UHGV virus genome: UHGV-1611333
DNA length: 12,447 nt
From: a virus
Direction: 5' to 3' (one strand)
Shown here: positions 1,485 to 12,447 of the stretch, piece after piece
Layout of the letters: every line of letters begins with the position of its first letter
Numbering within the stretch: position 1 is the first letter of the stretch
Made by a program: the position numbers and the translations under genes
Notes under the pieces: generated by a model
What the model saw: the letters and a program-made list of their open reading frames with translations, nothing else
What the model was told of the DNA's origin: nothing
Databases searched by the model: none

Positions 1485-4400
1485 TTGGACAAAATAATTG
1501 ATTCAATTAGCCAGGCCACCAGCATTGGGGCGCTGATTGAAATTGTTAGTCGGTTGCATAAACCGCGAGCTGTAGTGACCTTTGGCGTTAAGAAAGTTGA
1601 TGGCGTCAGTATTCAGAAAACACGCCGGGCAGCAAACAACGCCGCAGTAGATCTTCTTAATTCCCTTCCGCCCGGCTTCGATGGGGCGAAATTAACTGAC
1701 GAACAGCGCCAGATTCTTGCCGGGTATACCGGTGAAGGCGGCCTGACAGATGGTGAGGGCAGCCAATACGAATACTACACGCCACAGTTTATGGCAGAAG
1801 GTATATGGGATCTCTTCGGCGACTACGGTATTGATGGCGGTCACGTACTGGAACCATCAGCGGGCACAGGTATTTTCCAGGAGACAAAACGGCAGGGCAT
1901 GATAATGACCAGCGCCGAACTGTCTCCGATTTCCGGTCGAATAAACCAGCTTTTGCACCCGGAAGACGATGTGAATATTGGGGCGTTTGAGGCGCTGGCG
2001 GCGAAAGACGCAATGTATGACCACGCTGTTGGTAACGTACCGTTTGGTGAAGGGCGTTCCGGCGTTGCCGGGCTTGATCCGGCATATGCAAACGAGAAGA
2101 ACGTTGGCAATTACTTTGTGTTGCGCACGATCGACAAGGTTAAGCCTGGTGGACTAATTGTATTGGTGGTGCCGAATGGCATGACCGATGGTACGAAATA
2201 CAAAAAATTGCGCGATAAAGTCAGCCGTAAGGCGGAATTTTTGGGCGCGCATCGTATGCCTTCTGGTACGTTCAGCGAATCCGGTACAGATACCGTGGTG
2301 GACGTATGGGTATTGCGTAAACACCCGGAAACCTTCCTGGAGATGATCCCCGACACGGATGATGCAACGCTCAAATCGGCAAACGTCCTTTGGGATACCT
2401 TCCTCAAAGGGAAATGGTTTACAACCGAAGGGAAGCGATTTGTTTACGGCGACATGGAACGCACCAGCTTCCGCAATACCCTGGTGGTGAAAAAGGACGG
2501 TCGTGTATCCAATGAGTCGATGAAAACCGCGTTATCACGCCGCTTTGAAAGCCGTATTAATTGGGATTTGCTCGGAGTAACTACCCAGGCATGGCAGGGC
2601 GCAAAAGTAGGGGATAAGCGCCTTGTAGGCGGTATCTGGCATGAGTTTGATGGCCTGAAATGGGTTAAGGACACGACAACCAAATCCTCCGCGCTTGATG
2701 TAAGTCGATATGGTGTTTCGACGTTTGGCGATCTGCAGATCGCGTTCCAGTCAACAAACGGGATTCTGGCTTTGTCATGGGACCAGATATCGGCGATCGC
2801 GTCCGACTATCCATCGGTTGTCAGTGATGAAGTGGCAGCAATGATTCGCTTTGCTGGCAAACAGCGAGAAAAAGACAGGGAGCGCGTTATGCGCGGTGCG
2901 TTGATAGGGCAGTTGATCAACAAGGCACTTGATTTGCGTAACCTGGGGGTGAACGTTGATGACAAACTGGCAGATGCATCCCGCCTGGCGGCAGCAGAAG
3001 TTGCGAAGTATGGACCACCGCACGCGATTAAGCTGAATGGGCTTGCAGAAGCTGGAGCTAAAAACTGGATGACGTTCACTGGCAACGTGAAACAGGATGG
3101 TTCCACTTCTGACCTTCTGGCAGGGCGACTTGATGTAACGGATGGTGCTGCCGGTATTGACTTTACACGTCCGGAACAAGTGATAGCACATCTTTTCAGT
3201 GATGTAGCCCTTAATCCTATAACGCTGGGCGACTTTCGTGAGGCGTTTGCTGGTGAACTGCCAGAGGACGACGACGCGGCCCTTGAATACCTGGCGAAAT
3301 TTGATGATATCGCTATTGATGGGTATGGCTGCCTGCTGCCGATGGACCGCGCCACCAGCGGCGATATTGCAACCAAAACAGCATTGCTGATGGGCTGGCG
3401 TGATGCGTCAACAGGTGAGCAGAAATCGAACTTTGAGCGTCAGTTGGCGAAAATCGAAGAGAAACGCATTTTCACGCCACTAAATAAAGTCACCGTTAAT
3501 CTGAACGCCCGCTGGCTGGATCGCCGCTTGATAAAAGAATTCCTGGCAGAGCAGGGCTATGACGAGTTTAAGTACACTGAACCTGATCTGAAGATCGTCG
3601 ATGGCATTCTGGTATCTCCGGACGATTACGAAGGTAAGGACGGGGTATTTACCGGCTATCAGCTACGAACCGTAAACGGCAAAAACGGGAATGAGTTCAA
3701 GAAGGCCAACAATAAAGACGGCTTCCTGAACCAGTTAGAAAACTACCTGAACGGTGTTAAACCGCGTGGGCAGAACGCTAACGAGTACCTGGATAAAATT
3801 GCTCAACTGGAAGTTAGTTTTAACGACTGGTTACGCACTCACCCGCAGGCTGATCAGATAGCCCGCGAGTATAACGACGCATTCAATGGCTTCATTCCGT
3901 TCACGCACTCTAACGCACCGCTTGGCCTGGAAGGGATTAGTGGAAAGCGCATTCCTCTGACTTATCAGAATGAAGAAGTTCGTCGCTTGTCAGAAGATGG
4001 GCGCGGCATCATGGGATTTGGTACCGGGCTGGGTAAAACCACGACCGCGCTTGCGCTTGAGGCGTATAACTTCGAAACAGGTCGCACTAAACGCACGTGT
4101 ATTGTTGTTCCGAAGGCGGTTTATCAGAACTGGTATCACGAGGCACAGAGCTTCTACAGTGCTGATGCCTTCGCAAATATGATGTTTATCGGTCTGGATG
4201 AAGTTCGTGATGAAGACGGCAATATTCTGACCGCGCCGGTGCTTGATGAAAATGGCGAACCCCGCCTCGACAGTAACGGGCAGCCTCTTACCAGAAATGT
4301 TGTGAAAGAGTCCGCCAGCGCCGTTATCGTTCAGCGCATGAACATGATCCCGTCGTCAAATTGGCGAACGATCATCATGACAAAAGAACAATTCGCGTCT

Positions 4401-7400
4401 ATCCCGCTACGAGAAAAAACCATCGAGGAGAACTCACAGCAAGCTGTCTTTAATGCTGTGGAAATGGGGCGTCTTGATCTGGCGTCCGGTAAACACCGTG
4501 ATGCGCAGAAGAAGAACAAGATTAAGGATCAGGCCGCGAATACCGGTACAACGAAGAAGCAGAATATCCCGTACTTTGAGGATATGAACTTCGATAGCGT
4601 GATTGCCGACGAGGGGCATAACTACCGCAACTCCTTTAATGCCGGGCGTGAAGCGGGACAACTGGCATATTTGCCTAACCCGGCAGTATCCAAGATGGCC
4701 CGCGACATGGCTGTAAAAGCTGCGTACATGATGAAACGCAACAACGGGCGTGGTGTAGTCATGCTGACGGCAACACCGCTGGTGAACAGTCCGATTGATG
4801 CCTTCAACATGCTGTCTACTGTCATTCCGCAGGAAGAGTGGATGCGCATGGGCATCATTACGCCTGATGATTTCGTTCGTGTGTTTGGTAAAACAGCCAC
4901 AGTTCAGGTCCAGAAAATTTCCGGGGAAGTGGAAGAGAAGCAGGGGCTGGTTGGCTTCCAGAACCTTGATGGCCTGCGTGGTATTTTCCATCGCTGGACT
5001 ACTCTGAAGACTGCTGCGGACGTCGGGGCGACGGTTAAAATCCCTGATATTGTCGAGAATACCTTGCAGATCCCGATGACAGGGGAGCAGGAGGCTGCTT
5101 ATGAAGAGCTTCGTAAGCGTGCACAGGAGTTAAGTAGTAAAGATGCGCTGACGGTTGATGAAAACGGGCATATCACAAACGAAAAACCGGATGATTTCAT
5201 CTTCTCCATCATCCGCGACATGGATAAGGTTGCTATAGATCCGGATCTGTATGCCAGTGCGATTACATTCCAGTTCCCCGTTGAGCTTGCAGACAAGGTA
5301 AAAGCTATTGCTGATGCCCTGCCAAAAGTAGCTGGCGGTAAAGTGGCAGATGATGCAGACGAGGCCGAAGAAGACGGCGCTGGTGGACTGGTTAGTACGC
5401 GCACCAGTAAGGTAGTGAAGACCACCTTTAGTGAACATCCGGCGCATGTTGAAATACGCGCCAGCATTGAACTGGAAGCTGAAATACTGAGGGCCATTGC
5501 TGCCGCCGGGATTGATCTACAGCAGGTATCACACCCCATCCCGCCGAAGTATGCCGCGCTGATCGAAAACCTTCGTGAAGGTCTGAAGAACGGTAAACAA
5601 ATTGTCTTCATTGATGAAAAAGCCCAGCACCAGAAGCTGCGCCGTATTATCGCCAGTGCACTGCAAATGCCGGAGCAGGAGATAGGCATTATCAATGCGA
5701 CGACCGTTAGCCAGGCTGGCGGCATCAAGCTGAAGAAGGTGAATAAGCCGACTGAACCTACTCCGAATAAAAACGGTGAATACAAAGAAGGGGCATGGGA
5801 AACCTACTACAGCAAACTTGCCCAATATGAGGATTATCTCTCAGCTAAAAATGATGCTGGCCTTGAGGGTATGGAAGGCATTGCCGCCGACTATAACGAA
5901 GGGCGCACGCGCATCATTATCTGTAACAAGAAGGCTGAAGTAGGTATTAACCTGCATATCGGGACAACCGATATCCACCACCTGACACTACCCTGGACAC
6001 CAGCCAGTATCGACCAACGAAATGGGCGCGGTGCGCGCGTAGGCTCACCGCAAGAGAAGGTCAATGTTCACTACTACTGTGGCAAAGGCACATTTGATGA
6101 TTTCCGCCTGGATACGCTGAAACGCAAGAAAGACTGGATCAAGATGGTGATGACCTCCGACATGTCAGAGATCGCCAATGGTGATGCGGATGATGCAGAT
6201 GAACGCGCCATTATGCTGGCAGCAAACCCGGAAGAACGCCGCGCAATCATGGCTCGCCAGGCACAAGAGCGTGAAGAACGTCTGAAACTGAAAGCACAGC
6301 GCGAGGCCAACAATGCTCTCGATATCTACCTGAAAGCGGCAAACGCCGCCGGAAAAGATATCGGCATGATGGAGACAGAACTGAAAAGCGCGATGGAACA
6401 GATAGAGTATTATCAGCGCAATCTTGACGACCTGATAAAAGCGGGTACGAACAGGAATGGGCAAAAATACGCGCTTGAGCAGTTGAGTAGCTACAGAAAA
6501 CGTGCGCGGGTGCTGCGGTTTGCGATCACCAGGGCAAAAGACGCGGATACCATTATGAAACGCTCTCGTGGTGATGTGGAACGCGCTATTAAGTCTGGTG
6601 TGCTGGATATCAGCATCGATGTTATTCAGAACCCGCAAGAATATATGCGCACTGACAAGAACATTCTGTTGCATAAAGGTAGTTATTACCGTGCAGTCAT
6701 TGATGATCGCGAAACAACAGCGATTGTCCGGGTGGAAAAAATTGACGGTGAAAAAGCACAATACCTCTGCCGTATCGCCTGGCTGGATAGAGCAAGTCGT
6801 TACGCTCGAGCACCGGGGTCAATCGTTACATTGCCGTTTGACTCTGTGATTGAAGCGGTAACTTTTGAAGAGGGGGTAGCTGAATCGCGCGCAACGGCTG
6901 CGCGTGGTGTTCAGTGCCACCAGCTATCAACAATACTTACTCGCGATCAGTTCTATGATGCTATTCGCAATGGGGTAATGAATGTTATTGCTGGTAAATC
7001 TGGTAATGCATGGGGCGGTGGGTCAGCTATTAAATACTGGGCATATCGCACAGATGATGGTCAGATCGCGCTGTCATCGGCCTATGATGGCGTGATAGGC
7101 CAAAAAATCGGGCGAGCATCGGATATAGCACCTGAGCGATGGATATATCCTGATGGCAACGACGAGGCGCTGAAGCGTGAAGTGGCAAAAATACAAGCCA
7201 GTGATAACCCGCTGAATATCGTGGACGGCGAGGGATTCCTCCAGGCATTGTATGGGTATGATTACATCCAGGGAATGCAGGCATGGGGCGCACAGGCAAC
7301 GATGGATGATGTTGCCCAGGAGTTCGAAAACTGGATGGCTGGGCGTGGTCTGTCAGGTCGTTCGCTTAATAAAGTCACTTCTGAAGATATTCTTAGCTTG

Positions 7401-8321
7401 TTCCGCAAACCGTCCGGAGAAGGTCTGGAATCATTCTGGAGGACCGTGCTGGCATACCGTTTATTCCAGGGCAGGATGAAAGCCTTTAGCAATATCGATG
7501 ATATTGAACGGATGTTTAATCAGGTCAAGATAGCGAAAATTAAGACGAAGATCGAAAAAACACGTTCTGCGCTGGTGGCCTGGCGCGATGCATTGTTTGA
7601 GCAATATAAATCACTCAGTGATGCAGATGGATGGGCGGCACTGGAACAGTTGGCGAATAATGGGGTAGATGGAGCGAAACTCGCCATTGTCCAGGCTGAT
7701 AACCCCCTGGAATCACCGGCAGCACAGTGGATTAAGGTGGGGGCTGTCATCAATGCATTTGATGAAAAACACATTAGTAAGGACGATTTTGCTGATGCTG
7801 TTTCTGTTAATCGCCTGGTAGAAATGGCTACCCGCCGCGCCCGTGAGTTGAAAGACGGTGACTATGTGAATGAGTTGCCGGATGCGCTCAAATCAGCAAC
7901 GTGGCAAGACTATGTATCGCTGAAAAACGGCGGGGCCACCGAATCAGAGATCGCGGAAAGGCTTGAACAGGCTGAAAGCAAAAGAGAAGAGCAGGCGGCA
8001 GTGGCTGAAGCCAGAGCTGATGAAGCGGCGAATGATGACTATATCATTGTGGTTAATGATAAGCCGATTCGCGCTAAGGCGCGTGTTCGCGGGCGCTGGT
8101 GGAGCGTCAGCGAGGACGTCGGTGCGGTTTATCTCATTGCCGACCAACCTGGTTCCTCGACAATACGGAACGCCAAAGACGCGATTAAGAAGATTGGCGG
8201 GCGTTTCTGGAATTTTGAAGCAAACCCGGTTGCTGATGTGAACTTTGACCGTCCGGCATGGATGGTATCTACGCGTTACTCGGTAGATGAACTGCGTAAA
8301 ATAATCGCCGATGCGGCCTAA
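1485..8321 (+). CDS. Giant fused N6-adenine DNA methyltransferase / SF2 helicase protein (phage P1 DarB-like antirestriction architecture)
   Basis: 6.8-kb uninterrupted ORF. Methyltransferase motif I VLEPSAGTGIF (about nt 1848-1874) and motif IV GNVPFG (2031-2048). Helicase Walker A GFGTGLGKTT (about 4011-4040), DEGH box (4605-4619), LTATPL motif III and motif VI QRNGRGARVG (6015-6044). The C-terminal ~700 aa are coiled-coil-rich with no recognised motifs. The ORF is open from TTG 1470, but TTG 1485 has a GAGGGGG Shine-Dalgarno 6 nt upstream and is the more likely start. Confidence 0.9.
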   Translation: MDKIIDSISQATSIGALIEIVSRLHKPRAVVTFGVKKVDGVSIQKTRRAANNAAVDLLNSLPPGFDGAKLTDEQRQILAGYTGEGGLTDGEGSQYEYYTPQFMAEGIWDLFGDYGIDGGHVLEPSAGTGIFQETKRQGMIMTSAELSPISGRINQLLHPEDDVNIGAFEALAAKDAMYDHAVGNVPFGEGRSGVAGLDPAYANEKNVGNYFVLRTIDKVKPGGLIVLVVPNGMTDGTKYKKLRDKVSRKAEFLGAHRMPSGTFSESGTDTVVDVWVLRKHPETFLEMIPDTDDATLKSANVLWDTFLKGKWFTTEGKRFVYGDMERTSFRNTLVVKKDGRVSNESMKTALSRRFESRINWDLLGVTTQAWQGAKVGDKRLVGGIWHEFDGLKWVKDTTTKSSALDVSRYGVSTFGDLQIAFQSTNGILALSWDQISAIASDYPSVVSDEVAAMIRFAGKQREKDRERVMRGALIGQLINKALDLRNLGVNVDDKLADASRLAAAEVAKYGPPHAIKLNGLAEAGAKNWMTFTGNVKQDGSTSDLLAGRLDVTDGAAGIDFTRPEQVIAHLFSDVALNPITLGDFREAFAGELPEDDDAALEYLAKFDDIAIDGYGCLLPMDRATSGDIATKTALLMGWRDASTGEQKSNFERQLAKIEEKRIFTPLNKVTVNLNARWLDRRLIKEFLAEQGYDEFKYTEPDLKIVDGILVSPDDYEGKDGVFTGYQLRTVNGKNGNEFKKANNKDGFLNQLENYLNGVKPRGQNANEYLDKIAQLEVSFNDWLRTHPQADQIAREYNDAFNGFIPFTHSNAPLGLEGISGKRIPLTYQNEEVRRLSEDGRGIMGFGTGLGKTTTALALEAYNFETGRTKRTCIVVPKAVYQNWYHEAQSFYSADAFANMMFIGLDEVRDEDGNILTAPVLDENGEPRLDSNGQPLTRNVVKESASAVIVQRMNMIPSSNWRTIIMTKEQFASIPLREKTIEENSQQAVFNAVEMGRLDLASGKHRDAQKKNKIKDQAANTGTTKKQNIPYFEDMNFDSVIADEGHNYRNSFNAGREAGQLAYLPNPAVSKMARDMAVKAAYMMKRNNGRGVVMLTATPLVNSPIDAFNMLSTVIPQEEWMRMGIITPDDFVRVFGKTATVQVQKISGEVEEKQGLVGFQNLDGLRGIFHRWTTLKTAADVGATVKIPDIVENTLQIPMTGEQEAAYEELRKRAQELSSKDALTVDENGHITNEKPDDFIFSIIRDMDKVAIDPDLYASAITFQFPVELADKVKAIADALPKVAGGKVADDADEAEEDGAGGLVSTRTSKVVKTTFSEHPAHVEIRASIELEAEILRAIAAAGIDLQQVSHPIPPKYAALIENLREGLKNGKQIVFIDEKAQHQKLRRIIASALQMPEQEIGIINATTVSQAGGIKLKKVNKPTEPTPNKNGEYKEGAWETYYSKLAQYEDYLSAKNDAGLEGMEGIAADYNEGRTRIIICNKKAEVGINLHIGTTDIHHLTLPWTPASIDQRNGRGARVGSPQEKVNVHYYCGKGTFDDFRLDTLKRKKDWIKMVMTSDMSEIANGDADDADERAIMLAANPEERRAIMARQAQEREERLKLKAQREANNALDIYLKAANAAGKDIGMMETELKSAMEQIEYYQRNLDDLIKAGTNRNGQKYALEQLSSYRKRARVLRFAITRAKDADTIMKRSRGDVERAIKSGVLDISIDVIQNPQEYMRTDKNILLHKGSYYRAVIDDRETTAIVRVEKIDGEKAQYLCRIAWLDRASRYARAPGSIVTLPFDSVIEAVTFEEGVAESRATAARGVQCHQLSTILTRDQFYDAIRNGVMNVIAGKSGNAWGGGSAIKYWAYRTDDGQIALSSAYDGVIGQKIGRASDIAPERWIYPDGNDEALKREVAKIQASDNPLNIVDGEGFLQALYGYDYIQGMQAWGAQATMDDVAQEFENWMAGRGLSGRSLNKVTSEDILSLFRKPSGEGLESFWRTVLAYRLFQGRMKAFSNIDDIERMFNQVKIAKIKTKIEKTRSALVAWRDALFEQYKSLSDADGWAALEQLANNGVDGAKLAIVQADNPLESPAAQWIKVGAVINAFDEKHISKDDFADAVSVNRLVEMATRRARELKDGDYVNELPDALKSATWQDYVSLKNGGATESEIAERLEQAESKREEQAAVAEARADEAANDDYIIVVNDKPIRAKARVRGRWWSVSEDVGAVYLIADQPGSSTIRNAKDAIKKIGGRFWNFEANPVADVNFDRPAWMVSTRYSVDELRKIIADAA

Positions 8322-9230: not shown

Positions 9231-9240
9231 GTGTTAGAAA
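9231..9240 (+). promoter_or_regulatory. Copy 1 of the recurrent GTGTTAGAAA motif
   Basis: GTGTTAGAAA sits 4 nt upstream of ATG 9245 and about 25 nt downstream of the candidate -10, i.e. an operator-like position in the 5' UTR. Confidence 0.4.
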
Positions 9241-9244
9241 TTTG

Positions 9245-9688
9245 ATGCGAAGACGCAGGCATCATAGTGCGTATTCTGAAATATCCCCGCACGCTGCTGC
9301 ACTAAGAGAGTTAGAAAGAAATCCTGACTTACTAAAAAGGAATTTCGAACATTACGAACAGGTTCGCGTTCTGGATTGGCTGTATCGCAACATGCGATAC
9401 GTGTATGAACACACACACTCAACACCGAACGGCGGCCTGAGAGGCAAAAGGACAGCCATTAAGATGGTGGCAGAAGGTCAGAAGAAGGGCTATCCGGACC
9501 TTTCTATTGACCTTGCTCGTGGTGGGTATCACGGAATGCGCATTGAGATGAAGCACGGGAGAAACCGTCTGACTCCCGAACAGCTTGTCTGGATGACCCG
9601 CCTCACGGAAGCAGGCTATTACTGCTTTGAGGCGCGCAGTGCCGATGAAGCCATAAAAGCTATCACGGAATATGTAAATCTTGATTAA
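9245..9688 (+). CDS. VRR-NUC domain nuclease (PD-(D/E)xK superfamily)
   Basis: N-terminal EQVRVLDWL element and catalytic core GYPDLSIDLARGGYHGMRIEMKHG (PD ... E-x-K) encoded at about 9487-9555. The ORF track starts at TTG 9242; ATG 9245 is used here. Confidence 0.75.
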   Translation: MRRRRHHSAYSEISPHAAALRELERNPDLLKRNFEHYEQVRVLDWLYRNMRYVYEHTHSTPNGGLRGKRTAIKMVAEGQKKGYPDLSIDLARGGYHGMRIEMKHGRNRLTPEQLVWMTRLTEAGYYCFEARSADEAIKAITEYVNLD

Positions 9689-10219: not shown

Positions 10220-10246
10220 AAACCCGCCAGTTGGCGGGTTTTTTGT
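10220..10246 (+). terminator. Rho-independent terminator of the VRR-NUC operon
   Basis: AAACCCGCC-AGTT-GGCGGGTTTTTTG: 6-7 bp GC stem, 4-nt loop, U tract, beginning 9 nt after the stop at 10209-10211. Confidence 0.8.
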
Positions 10247-10285
10247 TGCCTGAGTCTTTTTATTGAAATTGCATACTAATAAAAT

Positions 10286-10304
10286 GTGTTAGAAAACTAA
10301 TTTC
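10286..10304 (+). promoter_or_regulatory. Copy 2 of the recurrent motif (GTGTTAGAAAACTAATTTC)
   Basis: Located between the terminator and the RBS (AGGGAA 10310-10315) of the 402-aa gene, 17 nt before ATG 10321. A TTGAAA element at 10264-10269 is nearby. Confidence 0.45.
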
Positions 10305-10320: not shown

Positions 10321-11529
10321 ATGAGTCAGCAAGTAGAATCATCAAGCCTGGAGATCATCTCAACCGCAATTGAAACGCTGCGGACACAAATCGCGCTTAT
10401 ACAGAAACGAAATCCGGGCGATGATCTGTCAAAGCGACTGCATGAGAGCGTCATTGCCACTACAGATAACCTGGTGGCGGAAATCAACCAGCTCCTTGAT
10501 GATGGGGCAGTTGATTACAATAAGCTGGTGGATCAGTTTGAGGAATATCAGCAAGCCGTTAATGATGGCTTGATCCGTTTTTCTCAAGTCACTGGTGTAT
10601 CTGCGACAGTTGAAAGCCTGGGGGATGCTGTTAATCAATTTGCCGCGAATATGCGTAATGAGATCGGCAATCTGGAGGCGCGTCTTGAGCAGGCAAATAC
10701 ATTGCGCAAATCTGCTGAAGTCGATTTGAGTCGTTACAAAAAAGACTATCCGCCAAGCCTGACAAAACGACTGGATGTTGCGGAGAAAGATAACCGCACT
10801 CTGAAAAGAGAGCGTCGGGAACTAAAAGAGCGCTTAACCAAGCTAAATCAGCAATGCGTTGAGTATCAAGGCGAACTCGTCACACTGCGTAAAAAGTTAG
10901 CAGCGGCGCAGAGCATTATTGAAACATTGAAACGAGAGTGCTCAGAGCTTGGTAATGATCTGAATCGCGCCTGTGGCATGGGGCAAAGGCCAGAGACATT
11001 CCCGCTAATGTATGACGGAAGAGAAGCTATTGCCTATATCCATGAGTTTCCGCATGGTCTGGTCGCGGAGACTGGGCAACGTGGCGAAGCGTTGCTGACG
11101 GCAAATTACCATCAGCAAATCAGAACCAGCCGCCTGCTGACGATGGATGTGATCCCGTCAGTATGGGGAACGCCGCTTTACTACCGAATTCCTGGCTTCG
11201 AAACTGACTGGAATACCGACATAGACGAATGTCTGGCAGATAAAATTATGGCGTACCTTGAAACGGATTTTCCACGCTTGCATCGCCGGATTATGGACTC
11301 TAAGGATGCACCGATCGACGAATTGAAAATGCGTCCAGAGACGTTGGAGGCAATCAAGCAGACTGAGTTTGATACGGTGTTCAGTGTGGCCTGCATTCCA
11401 AGCAGCTTTCATGAAAGCATTCCGTTCATGCAGGGCGATCGACGTCAGGAAATAATTGATGCTTGCCGGGTATGGGCGAACGAGTGGGATAAGAAGAACG
11501 GTGGAGTTGAAAATCTTTACGGGAAATAA
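10321..11529 (+). CDS. Hypothetical coiled-coil protein (402 aa) with a C-terminal globular domain
   Basis: Long ORF with an RBS. Residues about 1-220 are heptad-rich and charged (e.g. LKRERRELKERLTKLNQQCVEYQGELVTLRKKLAAAQSIIETLKRE). The C-terminal ~180 aa are non-repetitive. No catalytic motif recognised. Confidence 0.85.
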   Translation: MSQQVESSSLEIISTAIETLRTQIALIQKRNPGDDLSKRLHESVIATTDNLVAEINQLLDDGAVDYNKLVDQFEEYQQAVNDGLIRFSQVTGVSATVESLGDAVNQFAANMRNEIGNLEARLEQANTLRKSAEVDLSRYKKDYPPSLTKRLDVAEKDNRTLKRERRELKERLTKLNQQCVEYQGELVTLRKKLAAAQSIIETLKRECSELGNDLNRACGMGQRPETFPLMYDGREAIAYIHEFPHGLVAETGQRGEALLTANYHQQIRTSRLLTMDVIPSVWGTPLYYRIPGFETDWNTDIDECLADKIMAYLETDFPRLHRRIMDSKDAPIDELKMRPETLEAIKQTEFDTVFSVACIPSSFHESIPFMQGDRRQEIIDACRVWANEWDKKNGGVENLYGK

Positions 11530-11530
11530 T

Positions 11531-11562
11531 GTGTTAGAAAACTAAAATTATCTTTCTAACAT
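11531..11562. promoter_or_regulatory. Copy 3 of the motif, arranged as an inverted repeat (TGTTAGAAA-N12-TTTCTAACA)
   Basis: GTGTTAGAAAACTAAAATTATC at 11531-11552 begins 2 nt after the 402-aa stop. Its 9-bp reverse complement TTTCTAACA lies at 11553-11561, giving a palindromic operator-like site or an AU-rich hairpin. Confidence 0.45.
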
Positions 11563-11598
11563 GTTGATTATGGAATTAACTTAACATAGAATTTTTCG

Positions 11599-11667
11599 TG
11601 CTGGTGGGGAGCTTCCCATGTCGCTTGCGGGTTTGATAGTCACTTCATTGTCTTCTCCCCACCAGCA
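11599..11667. repeat. Perfect 12-bp inverted repeat (TGCTGGTGGGGA / TCCCCACCAGCA) with a 45-nt spacer
   Basis: Arms at 11599-11610 and 11656-11667. A 25-codon ORF (ATG 11618, GGGGAG upstream) starts inside the loop. No flanking U tract, so not a classic terminator. Confidence 0.4.
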
Positions 11668-11681
11668 TCAAACAAATTTAA

Positions 11682-11700
11682 GTGTTAGAAAGTAAATTTA
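11682..11700 (+). promoter_or_regulatory. Copy 4 of the recurrent motif (GTGTTAGAAAGTAAATTTA)
   Basis: Same 10-nt core followed by a TAAATT element, at the entrance to the structured non-coding region. Confidence 0.4.
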
Positions 11701-11903
11701 AGGGTAAGGGAAAGCTCCGGCACCGTGCAAATACATGCCCGGCAGGTTTAGTGCGTAAAGTGGTTTCAGCGAGAGCATTTTACGGAGTAAACGACAGTGA
11801 CTTGAGCCACGGAAGGTCTTTTTAAGGTGTTCATTGATGATGATCTGGCAGTGAGTATGTTAAGTGGGCCAGGCTGCATCGGGTCATCATCAGTGCACAT
11901 CCT

Positions 11904-11971
11904 CAACGTTAAGGAGGCGCAGAGTTGGGTTTTCCTCTTATTTTGCTGACTCTGAGTCTCCTTAACGTTGC
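11904..11971. repeat. Long imperfect inverted repeat / RNA hairpin that sequesters a strong Shine-Dalgarno
   Basis: Left arm CAACGTTAAGGAG GCGCAGAG (11904-11924) pairs with CTCTGAGT CTCCTTAACGTTG (about 11951-11971): 13 perfect bp plus about 6 more with 2 mismatches. AAGGAGG at 11911-11917 is inside the left arm. Confidence 0.5.
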
Positions 11972-12104
11972 GGTAATGCACCTATGCGGATGTGGCCTTG
12001 CATTGTGTTTTGAAAGAATGGGGCAAGGCCGGGGATATCCCCAGGGGGAGGCACCCCCGCTGCAACGAACAGCCATAGACGGCAGTCGAGTGATGAAAAC
12101 GTGA
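11925..12104 (+). CDS. Candidate small hydrophobic peptide (59 aa, TTG start); speculative
   Basis: TTG 11925 lies 7 nt after AAGGAGG. It translates to MGFPLILLTLSLLNVAVMHLCGCGLALCFERMGQGRGYPQGEAPPLQRTAIDGSRVMKT, stop at 12102-12104. The hydrophobic N-terminal half is encoded across the hairpin. It is below the ORF-track size cutoff and may be a structured RNA rather than coding. Confidence 0.2.
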   Translation: MGFPLILLTLSLLNVAVMHLCGCGLALCFERMGQGRGYPQGEAPPLQRTAIDGSRVMKT

Positions 12105-12192
12105 AAAGACTTTAAACCTCGTTACGGCTGGCGTGGCAAACGCGACAACCGGGATAGGACGGTGACGGGCGGAGAGAGAGCCGCTTCAAGAT

Positions 12193-12259
12193 AAAAGCCG
12201 ACTATGGATTCCTTTCTGCGGGCCTTTGAAAGTGAATCTTGCTCAGGCAGTCGGCTTTT
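12193..12259. repeat. 11-bp perfect inverted repeat (AAAAGCCGACT / AGTCGGCTTTT) with a 45-nt spacer
   Basis: Arms at 12193-12203 and 12249-12259, followed by TTTTATGTTG. Either a large-loop hairpin within a structured RNA or a weak terminator. Confidence 0.4.
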
Positions 12260-12391
12260 ATGTTGATACGTAGCGATAACCGCGACAGGCGCGGCGGCAA
12301 GTATGGCGGGGTAGTGACTCCTTCCCCCTCATGACGCCGAGTTGCCAGGTTGACCATACGCCTAAGTGGCAATACCGCGAGTGGGATATTT

Positions 12392-12417
12392 GCCCATCTT
12401 CGGGTGGGCGTTTTTTT
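12392..12417 (+). terminator. Textbook intrinsic terminator with a UUCG tetraloop
   Basis: GCCCATC-TTCG-GGTGGGC (7-bp stem including one G-U pair, C(UUCG)G tetraloop) followed by GTTTTTTT at 12410-12417. A possible ATG of a downstream gene follows at 12431. Confidence 0.8.
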
Positions 12418-12447
12418 CAGGGTTTTCGTCATGGTTAGCGACTTTGC

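Follow-up and report, generated by a model that had tools for sequence, protein, structure and literature searches.

A conserved non-coding region of D6-like phage-plasmids appears to specify a chain of exchangeable RNA modules, two of them related to the STnc100 family and to the segment upstream of dicF

Introduction

In phage P1, the leader of the ban operon lies between the promoter Pban, where the annotated C1 operator Op72 sits, and a terminator with a UUCG loop, and contains a segment that the GenBank record (NC_005856) labels 'dicF-like region'. In the Qin prophage of Escherichia coli K-12, RNase E and RNase III are known to cut small RNA out of a region that holds DicF and dicB. Here we describe a region that is related to both: positions 11530-12447 of the virus genome UHGV-1611333 (a stretch of 12,447 nucleotides, the whole of which is referred to as the window). 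We conclude that it is a composite of partly known phage RNA modules, one of them of the STnc100 type, and not a riboswitch or a large RNA of a new kind.

Other described systems invite comparison. ROOL (RF03087) and GOLLD (RF01998) are large RNAs that often occur in phages, beside tRNA genes. The put elements of phage HK022 are promoter-proximal structured RNA located before terminators in an early phage operon with no N-like gene nearby. STnc100 (RF02076) is an orphan small RNA (sRNA) family to which the prophage sRNA PasD is related, and for both of these a trans action has been proposed. For the Qin region, the 5' end of DicF has been assigned to RNase E, and a 72-nt form of DicF to RNase III cleavage (PMC5069750).

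Results

Homology to the P1 ban leader and absence of coding potential

The window comes from a D6-like phage-plasmid of the P1 family. Its positions 12271-12447 align to P1 68729-68912 (81% identity; 90.5% with P7), a P1 segment that has the P1ban -10 hexamer and the C1 operator Op72ab ~33 nt upstream of its start, and trnA and trnT after it. On the strength of this alignment near Pban, the region is a positional, and in part a sequence, homologue of the P1 ban-operon leader. The two have in common a sigma-70 promoter controlled by C1-type operators (predicted here), an element that we call module C, the UUCG terminator and an invariant sequence behind it, followed by tRNA genes and then by an STnc100-type module before tciA. 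They also differ: promoter and module C are ~35 nt apart in P1, whereas here ~680 nt of extra RNA modules intervene; the upstream neighbour is dmt (2.3 kb) in P1 and pmgS here; and the D6 operon runs to lpa and pacAB, not to ban.

An earlier reading of the letters alone (hereafter the original prediction) had seen no credible open reading frame (ORF) between the stop codon of the upstream 402-aa gene (11529) and the terminator, and this was borne out. The longest ORFs in 11530-12447 encode 76 aa (- strand, 12202-12432), 71 aa (- strand, 11766-11981) and 59 aa (+ strand, TTG start, 11925-12104), and none is conserved; indeed, no window ORF of at least 25 aa stays open across nine homologues that are 61-98% identical over the region. 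A relative with 98% identity (locus L003 in our numbering of the fetched loci) already frameshifts most of the window ORFs, the indels that separate homologues are not multiples of three, and the homologues share no conserved leader peptide or small ORF. Translations of the six longest ORFs had no match in Pfam. Distant blastn searches of phages, plasmids and all complete E. coli genomes returned only non-coding homologues, with 'none' as the annotated feature; the block is conserved as non-coding DNA. The suggestion that the region might be a riboswitch-like or attenuator leader for an ATG at 12431 did not hold: in relatives that extend further, this ATG opens a frame of only eight codons (ATGGTTAGCGACTTTGCGGCGGTTTAG), which is followed by the tRNA cluster, and no riboswitch family was matched.

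A search with the Rfam covariance models had been proposed for 11500-12447; over the whole window it returned nothing at the gathering threshold, with ROOL, GOLLD and the riboswitches among the models used. When E-values up to 10 were admitted for 11450-12447, only noise was recovered (miRNA, U12 and Ysr49 models, 12-20 bits).

Strand-specific pairing along the region

The + strand RNA of 11599-12420 folds to -324 kcal/mol, compared with -280 ± 7 kcal/mol for dinucleotide shuffles (z = -6.0), and the - strand to -268 kcal/mol (z = -4.4). The inverted repeats that the original prediction had listed were found in place, and the pairs of arms identified here are 11594-11611/11655-11672, 11746-11767/11771-11792, 11821-11843/11884-11906, 11888-11925/11949-11986 and 12186-12203/12249-12266. 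An increase in GC content from about 11860 had also been noted. The increase is real (0.36 in 11500-11649 to 0.51-0.56 beyond 11900), but the contrast is modest, since neighbouring coding DNA has values of 0.45-0.53.

A consensus fold of the 5' part (11595-11985) was computed from 16 homologues, and one spurious helix (columns 101-106 with 409-414) was removed before pairs were counted. In this fold 96.5% of cells are paired and six pairs are changed on both sides, variation being limited. Many pairs swap G-U with A-U or G-C, which keeps them paired on the + strand only. The upper stem of the 5'-terminal hairpin H1 (Table 1) differs between lineages, reading GGGGAG/CUCCCC in one and GGGCG/CGCCC in another. 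Hairpin H3 has the core UUGAUGAUGA/UCAUCAUCAG, and its helices 9 and 10 are 96-98% paired, with several G-U pairs exchanged for A-U or G-C. In hairpin H4, three pairs of helix 11 are changed on both sides (for example, A-U/G-C and C-G/U-A), as are two pairs of hairpin H6 further downstream (A-U/U-A and G-C/A-U). Some single-stranded stretches are likewise invariant among the homologues. The folding and comparative analysis that had been suggested for this DNA therefore came out in favour of conserved RNA structure: the + strand fold is better than that of shuffled sequence, and covariation is seen in the modules M3 and C described below and in parts of H4 and H6.

RNase III cuts duplexes of the 20-bp class, to which those of H3 and H4 belong, and both hairpins are candidate substrates of this enzyme. 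The last four bases of the H4 3' arm (GTTG, 11967-11971) are at the same time the first four of the closing helix of M3; because these bases are shared, the two helices compete for them. Separately, in one homologue of 11913-11962 (L020, IMGVR_UViG_3300015157_000028) the 47 bp inside H4 are exactly inverted relative to D6, between the arms CAACATTAA and TTAATGTTG, the product of either a natural DNA inversion or a template switch in a quasi-palindrome.

Module M3 is a divergent STnc100-type element

Within module M3, the closing helix P1 (GUUGCGGU/GCUGCAAC) encloses helix P2, with a conserved loop of ~10 nt, the P3 hairpin (GGCCUUGC/GCAAGGCC) and GGGG-AUAU-CCCC (GGGGATATCCCC, 12031-12042). Helix P4, GGGGG-AGGCA-CCCCC (GGGGGAGGCACCCCC, 12044-12058), is stacked on the closing helix. 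Three viral contigs from another phage-plasmid lineage (L015, L021 and L025) carry M3 by itself, at 77% identity; these are contigs whose nearest plasmid matches are partial, fall outside M3 and belong to ~90-kb plasmids of Enterobacter, Leclercia and Serratia. Across the two lineages the four helices are 95% paired, and 6 of the 24 pairs are changed on both sides. This covariation score was reached by none of 500 shuffles, pairing in slid controls was 42-60%, and RNAalifold recovers the same helices.

To place M3 in a family, a covariance model (R1) was constructed from 23 sequences of the Qin, P1 and Rfam-consensus types, with the window type excluded. With filters off, R1 matched 11966-12067 of the window at 32.6 bits across model positions 1-134; the E-values, 1.1e-5 in 56 kb and 2.4e-6 in the window, are rough because calibration was shortened. 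In the family alignment behind the model, 98.4% of cells pair and 13 of 24 pairs are changed on both sides. The 'c-type' STnc100-like copies, which MAFFT misaligned at the 3' end, were left out of R1 and used as test cases, in which they scored 40-43 bits. Rfam's own STnc100 model (RF02076, gathering threshold 47 bits) had no match in 11450-12447 at E-values up to 10. On sister modules the same model gave 40.8 bits (L003) and 34.4 bits (Qin), which are below its threshold, with E-values of ~1e-6 and the same helices.

The R1 match and the shared architecture together lead us to assign M3 as a divergent, minimal member of the STnc100 type. Like STnc100, it possesses a closing helix, P2 with its conserved loop of ~10 nt, a penultimate hairpin and, stacked on the closing helix, a 5-bp hairpin whose loop reads AGGCA; it is also phage-borne, and its sister copies are located upstream of dicB, tciA and other small phage genes. 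It differs in that it is the shortest variant, at ~100 nt, and in that it lies inside a long non-coding chain and not just before an ORF.

A descriptor that combined the terminal hairpin with the closing helix retrieved 76 distinct sequences from the fetched loci, at least one of which (L019) lacks the family features and is a false positive. An exact 20-nt M3 pattern matched one of 185,579 representative genomes, that of Pseudobdellovibrio; this match was rejected, as the flanking helices are absent and one match is at chance level for a 20-nt pattern.

STnc100-type copies occupy the gap between the DicF terminator and dicB in Qin, the position before tciA in P1 and D6, and a position after tRNA-Met in D6-like loci. 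The Qin copy (L008, E. coli K-12, 2692-2821) ends ~25 nt before the dicB start codon (2848). Past the window, the operon of the relatives carries three further STnc100-type modules (L003 5809-5965, 6162-6305 and 6786-6902; L001, the D6 record, 5833-5980, 6177-6303 and 7357-7473). One of these finishes only a few bases from where tRNA-Ser starts, a second lies ~30 nt before the start codon of tciA, and the third is located 3' of tRNA-Met, after a terminator-like hairpin. P1 (L002) has one module before tciA, at 4349-4474. A weak match of the STnc100-type model in P1 (4088-4191, + strand, which is that of the operon; 14.5 bits, E = 0.13) is antisense to the annotated small genes plp/upl, and D6-like relatives have an RNA module and tRNA-Ser where P1 has plp/upl. 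Four STnc100-type sequence types (alignment A6; for example, L040, L002, L098 and L113) show a complementarity of 6-7 nt between the linker after P2 and the penultimate loop (CAGUUAA/UUAACUG, UGGUUAU/AUAACCA, AUCAGCA/UGCUGAU and CUGGUG/CACCGG), and this base complementarity suggests a pseudoknot that is absent from the Rfam STnc100 structure line.

Module C is homologous to the segment upstream of dicF

Module C is 81% identical to Qin L008 2501-2598, a segment 23-120 nt upstream of dicF, and its P1 counterpart is the segment labelled 'dicF-like region'. Of 5426 complete E. coli genomes, 4427 (>80%) have homologues, each genome as many as eight; P1, P7 and numerous lambdoid and Stx phages have them as well, and the module is matched by no Rfam family. 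In the three-hairpin fold of 26 diverse copies, pairing amounts to 92.6% and nine pairs are changed on both sides. Copies from lambdoid phages and from L005 add an outer closing helix, GUUGUGG/CYRCAAC, which the window's copy is without. Directly after module C, all lambdoid copies have a DicF-type element that varies in sequence and ends in a terminator; the P1-family copies have the UUCG terminator there. D6, L004 and L007 have no module C and retain the terminator.

DicF proper lies in Qin at L008 2622-2673 (Rfam, 76.7 bits). The Rfam DicF model (RF00039) had no match in the window, and the alignment places unrelated window sequence at the position of DicF. The 'dicF-like region' of P1 was thus rejected as a DicF, the homology being to the segment upstream of dicF. 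In RNAduplex comparisons with ftsZ (-80 to +60), 12374-12417 and 12260-12417 gave energies that did not improve on those of shuffles (fractions of 0.95 and 0.88), in a crude test that did not pick out genuine DicF (0.16) either. When the 72-nt DicF is counted from its Rfam-mapped 5' end it finishes at L008 2693, just where the STnc100-type module of Qin begins its closing helix.

The Qin dicBF region, in which the order is ydfC, module C, DicF, STnc100-type module and dicB, thus resembles the operon of the window, which also has module C, a short terminator-ended element and, later, an STnc100-type module. It differs in that the window has no DicF and in that an STnc100-type element, M3, stands upstream of module C here. 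A comparison of module C with HK022 putL and putR found only chance short matches to the HK022 immunity region, and module C was rejected as a put homologue: it lacks sequence similarity and has another secondary structure, of three hairpins compared with two long stem-loops.

A predicted promoter flanked by operator-like repeats

A single promoter-like site was found in 11400-12447, and likewise a single one in 3 kb of the closest relative (L003), which cover the leader, five tRNA genes and further RNA modules. Both of its hexamers (Table 1) are invariant in seven homologues, including loci that are only 61-73% identical overall.

The decamer GTGTTAGAAA, allowing at most one mismatch, occurs six times in the window, compared with 0.64 expected, and three operator-like copies (O1 to O3) fall within the first 170 bp of the region. 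O1 and O2 form a palindrome (11532-11545/11548-11561). The O1 core is invariant in seven homologues, and an identical O1 18-mer recurs at 10282-10299, before pmgS; O2 is confined to the window-type lineage and is not conserved in D6. In the scanned part of D6 (1-46000, the remaining 45 kb being outside the scan), the extended motif RTGTTAGAAAAYTAA has seven copies: immediately before c1, before lpa, before pmgS, in the gap between repL and icd/ant, at the start of the pmgM-like gene, and twice at the promoter of the region. In P1, annotated C1 operators precede pmgR/pmgS (Op86) and sit at Pban. Because the D6 copies before c1, lpa, icd/ant and pmgS match the positions of P1 operators, we read the motif as a C1-type operator; judged by this distribution, the RTGTTAGAAAAYTAA repeats are most likely the operator of a D6-type C1 repressor. 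The P1 C1 operator has the sequence ATTGCTCTAATAAATTT, unlike RTGTTAGAAAAYTAA.

Further copies in the window (9231-9240, 9308-9317 and 10286-10295) are located before the pmgM-like and pmgS-like genes, and those at 198, 4631 and 21268 of the D6 record, before c1, lpa and icd/ant, outline a candidate D6 C1 regulon; RTGTTAGAAAAYTAA could be used to map it. About 75 nt upstream of the pmgS-like start codon there is a terminator-like hairpin (10221-10246, AAACCCGCCAGTTGGCGGGTTTTTT), followed by an operator-like copy. From this arrangement, pmgS seems to own a repressor-controlled start.

Terminator, lineage-specific blocks and feature map

The UUCG terminator looks as strong as had been supposed: its stem-loop (12391-12410) has 8 pairs, 5 of them G-C, and is followed by seven T. 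P1, P7 and the D6-type loci all keep it, one stem pair changing from U-G to C-G. In relatives that extend past the window, the tRNA genes lie ~460 nt beyond the post-terminator sequence, on the same strand.

The block 12068-12185 yields no covariation signal because it hardly varies among D6-lineage loci. L005 lacks the block as a unit, and a 71-nt piece of it (12091-12161) is also found in the Klebsiella phage Kp4865-1. Hairpin H6 with its U-rich tail is a possible internal weak terminator or sRNA 3' end. Taken together, the ~500 nt outside M3 and module C are structured and specific to the D6 lineage.

Table 1. Features of the region, in window coordinates.
Feature	Position	Strand	Description
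Operator-like O1	11527-11545	+	AATGTGTTAGAAAACTAA; just past the pmgS-like stop codon, upstream of the -35 hexamer; motif at 11531
Operator-like O2	11546-11562	-	Inverted copy; motif 11553-11562; abuts the -35 hexamer
Sigma-70 promoter (predicted)	11564-11592	+	TTGATT (11564-11569), 17-nt spacer, TAGAAT (11587-11592); predicted start ~11599
Hairpin H1	11594-11672	+	Long 5'-terminal hairpin with the predicted transcript start at its base; helix 1 97% paired
Operator-like O3	11678-11696	+	Motif 11682-11691, ~+83 from the predicted start; GTTAGAAA invariant in homologues
Hairpin	11746-11792	+	GUUUAGUGCGUAAAGUGG/CAUUUUACGGAGUAAAC; helices 5 and 6, 94-95% paired; G-C to G-U changes
Hairpin H3	11821-11906	+	Two helical segments with 22 predicted pairs in all; one bulge, one internal loop
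Hairpin H4	11904-11971	+	Long, near-perfect, ~21 bp; final 4 nt shared with the closing helix of M3
Module M3	11966-12067	+	Divergent STnc100-family element; four nested helices
Conserved block of unknown type	12068-12185	+	Includes the hairpin GCGG-AGAGAGAG-CCGC, 12169-12184
Hairpin H6	12186-12266	+	AAAAGCCGACU...AGUCGGCUUUU, then a U-rich tract
Module C	12280-12379	+	Three hairpins: CCGCG/CGCGG, CGGC...GCCG, GUUGCCA/UGGCAAU
Intrinsic terminator	12391-12417	+	UGCCCAUC-UUCG-GGUGGGCG and U7; at the position of DicF in Qin
Post-terminator sequence	12418-12447	+	CAGGGTTTTCGTCATGGTTAGCGACTTTGC; identical in all aligned D6-like and P1-like homologues

Genomic setting and spread

The gene order is D6-like: a darB-like ORF of 2283 aa, a ulx-like, a pmgM-like and a pmgR-like gene, and the PmgS-like gene of 402 aa, after which the region begins. 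Relatives that extend past the window have a tRNA cluster 3' of the gap on the same strand, and in these and in D6 the tRNA genes are followed by tciA/tciB, two small ORFs (orf6 and orf5 in D6), lpa, pacA and pacB.

Positions 11400-12447 matched 553 plasmid records (491 from Escherichia, 47 from Salmonella), most of them ~90 kb and 537 of them typed as non-mobilizable; the top match is 98.2% identical, and phage D6 itself matches at 85% identity over 88% of the length. Each of the 104 plasmid records with query coverage of 80% or more keeps the region, which is still recognisable in relatives that are ~61-73% identical across it. Its core (11690-12275) is restricted to D6-like plasmids and occurs in 101 of 5426 complete E. 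coli genomes. No record examined carries an annotation for this conserved block of 0.9 kb. A literature search for P1 transcriptome data returned nothing relevant.

The D6 RefSeq record (NC_050154; L001 5365-6070 corresponds to record positions 7145-7850) gives the wrong strand for tRNA-Asn, tRNA-Thr and tRNA-Ser. ARAGORN finds all three on the strand of pmgS and tciA, as in P1, together with a fourth D6 tRNA gene, tRNA-Met(CAT), which the record does not annotate. ORF-poor stretches of unrelated enterobacterial phages share a block of the form CAGCCCAGACGATATCTGAGTGGCT...AAACAGATGGGAGC.GGTGGAA (L025 5810-5875; L034, Klebsiella phage Kp4865-1, 2655-2720). Such stretches, among which is also L034 2770-2853, hold in addition another domain, closed by GUUGUGG...CCACAAC. 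RNA-module islands of this type seem to be widespread.

Discussion

The blocks of this region are gained and lost independently, and we conclude from this that it comprises autonomous domains and not a single large fold: the predicted transcript of ~820 nt (~11599 to 12417) is a chain of separately exchangeable modules. The proposal in the original prediction of a non-coding RNA candidate holds in so far as the region is non-coding, conserved, structured on the + strand and bounded by a terminator; it does not hold in the sense of one discrete large RNA of a new kind.

With a probability of roughly 0.6, we favour the reading that the region forms the non-coding stretch next to the promoter of an early transcription unit under repressor control, the counterpart of the Pban leader, whose RNA is processed into small RNAs and partly terminated. 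From the comparisons above we infer transcription from the promoter, repression by C1, the efficiency of termination, processing and any trans-acting role. In a lysogen, a C1-type repressor bound to the RTGTTAGAAAAYTAA repeats would keep the promoter at 11564-11592 shut. Upon induction or infection, a transcript of ~820 nt would start at ~11599 and would fold, as it is made, into the 5' hairpin, the two long hairpins, the STnc100-type element, the lineage-specific block, H6 and the 'dicF-upstream' element. Most transcripts would stop at the terminator, 12391-12417. The long hairpins and the stacked P1/P4 helix of M3 would provide sites for RNase III, and the AU-rich linkers sites for RNase E, such that the precursor would be cut into small stable RNAs as in the homologous dicF region of Qin. 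Read-through would supply the downstream tRNA genes, the further STnc100-type modules and tciAB, and then lpa and pacAB. The processing step in this model is proposed because cleavage of the homologous Qin region by RNase E and RNase III has been reported (PMC5069750).

Several observations weigh against this interpretation. The promoter, its start site and C1 repression are computational predictions. There is no terminator between pmgS and the region, so part of the RNA could be a 3' untranslated region of pmgS; and since the terminator at the far end looks strong and the downstream tRNA genes have no consensus promoter, read-through or weak promoters must be assumed. M3 falls below Rfam's own detection and is without the putative linker/loop pseudoknot, having only an AUAU loop with no partner. 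Most of the 5' half, together with 12068-12185, is too invariant for covariation, and, because the inversion in L020 shows that such events happen here, compensatory changes in the long palindromes may arise at the level of DNA. Lastly, the role of STnc100 is itself unclear (PMC12370729; bioRxiv 10.64898/2026.05.13.724894).

The main rival is a leader that acts in cis only, through attenuation or HK022 put-like antitermination at 12391-12417, with no function as free RNA. We consider this possible, if unlikely. The region is promoter-proximal, like put, and a strong terminator stands before genes that lack a separate consensus promoter; in P1, Pban and this same terminator have module C directly between them, and in Qin the module precedes the DicF terminator, whose read-through is needed to reach dicB. 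Moreover, the CCGCG/CGCGG/CCGCG segments of module C can pair alternatively. However, D6, L004 and L007 keep the terminator without module C, from which it follows that the module is not required for read-through. In addition, the resemblance to put extends neither to the sequence of putL and putR nor to their two long stems, a leader peptide is not conserved, and 820 nt of exchangeable domains far exceeds what an attenuator needs.

A different cis-acting role, which we hold to be just as tentative, is that the STnc100-type and 'dicF-upstream' modules are 'punctuation' domains of long phage early operons, and that the D6 leader is an array of these and not of trans-acting sRNAs. They may be tRNA-like signals that direct processing by RNase III, RNase E or RNase P, or that reset the elongation complex, between sRNAs, tRNAs and small genes. 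Both modules are typically closed by a helix like GUUGYGG/CYRCAAC, and the 7+5-bp stack of the STnc100 type is reminiscent of the acceptor and T-arm of tRNA.

It is improbable that the region is evolutionary debris, or a set of DNA-level palindromes or an array of repressor sites, with no function at the level of RNA. Mosaic structure and module boundaries are typical of phage recombination, the exact inversion of the hairpin interior in L020 reflects palindrome dynamics in DNA, and three operator-like repeats do lie in the first 170 bp. Debris of this kind is nevertheless difficult to reconcile with retention of the region in every one of the well-covered plasmid records and in distant relatives, with invariant single-stranded stretches, or with helices kept via G-U intermediates, which preserve pairing on the + strand only. 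The covariation in M3 and module C, moreover, falls in short, nested helices that are not palindromic, and the same modules are conserved in unrelated phage backgrounds.

Slightly less probable still is a single large structured RNA of ~820 nt with a function of its own, in the manner of ROOL or GOLLD. The size, the dense structure, the negative folding z-score and the position upstream of a phage tRNA cluster would suit such an RNA, and the likeness to ROOL and GOLLD lies in just this: a large, ornate non-coding phage region beside tRNA genes. ROOL and GOLLD have one conserved fold, whereas here modules are gained and lost independently, and sub-blocks are deleted, inserted or found on their own in relatives. 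Neither these nor any other large RNA was matched in Rfam at E-values up to 10; the consensus fold of the 5' half (11595-11985) does not reproduce the long-range pairs of the minimum free energy structure; and one domain is a member of a family whose elements, ~100-140 nt long, stand singly elsewhere. A decayed protein gene, such as a remnant of the 2.3-kb dmt that P1 has upstream of the shared leader, is very unlikely, even though several ORFs of 40-76 aa are present, because none of them is conserved even between 98%-identical copies, Pfam and distant blastn gave no coding homologue, and indels do not respect the reading frame.

Our analysis links, through shared RNA modules, three things that had been treated apart: the C1-controlled early leader of the P1 family, the long untranslated dicF region of lambdoid prophages, and STnc100 as an orphan sRNA family. 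The block is also a gap in annotation, in phage-plasmids of the D6 type that E. coli and Salmonella commonly carry. If the processing model is true, a burst of small structured RNAs and tRNAs would be released once repression is lifted, which would bear on host takeover, on the control of cell division (dicF/dicB, tci and icd) and on how STnc100-type elements act.

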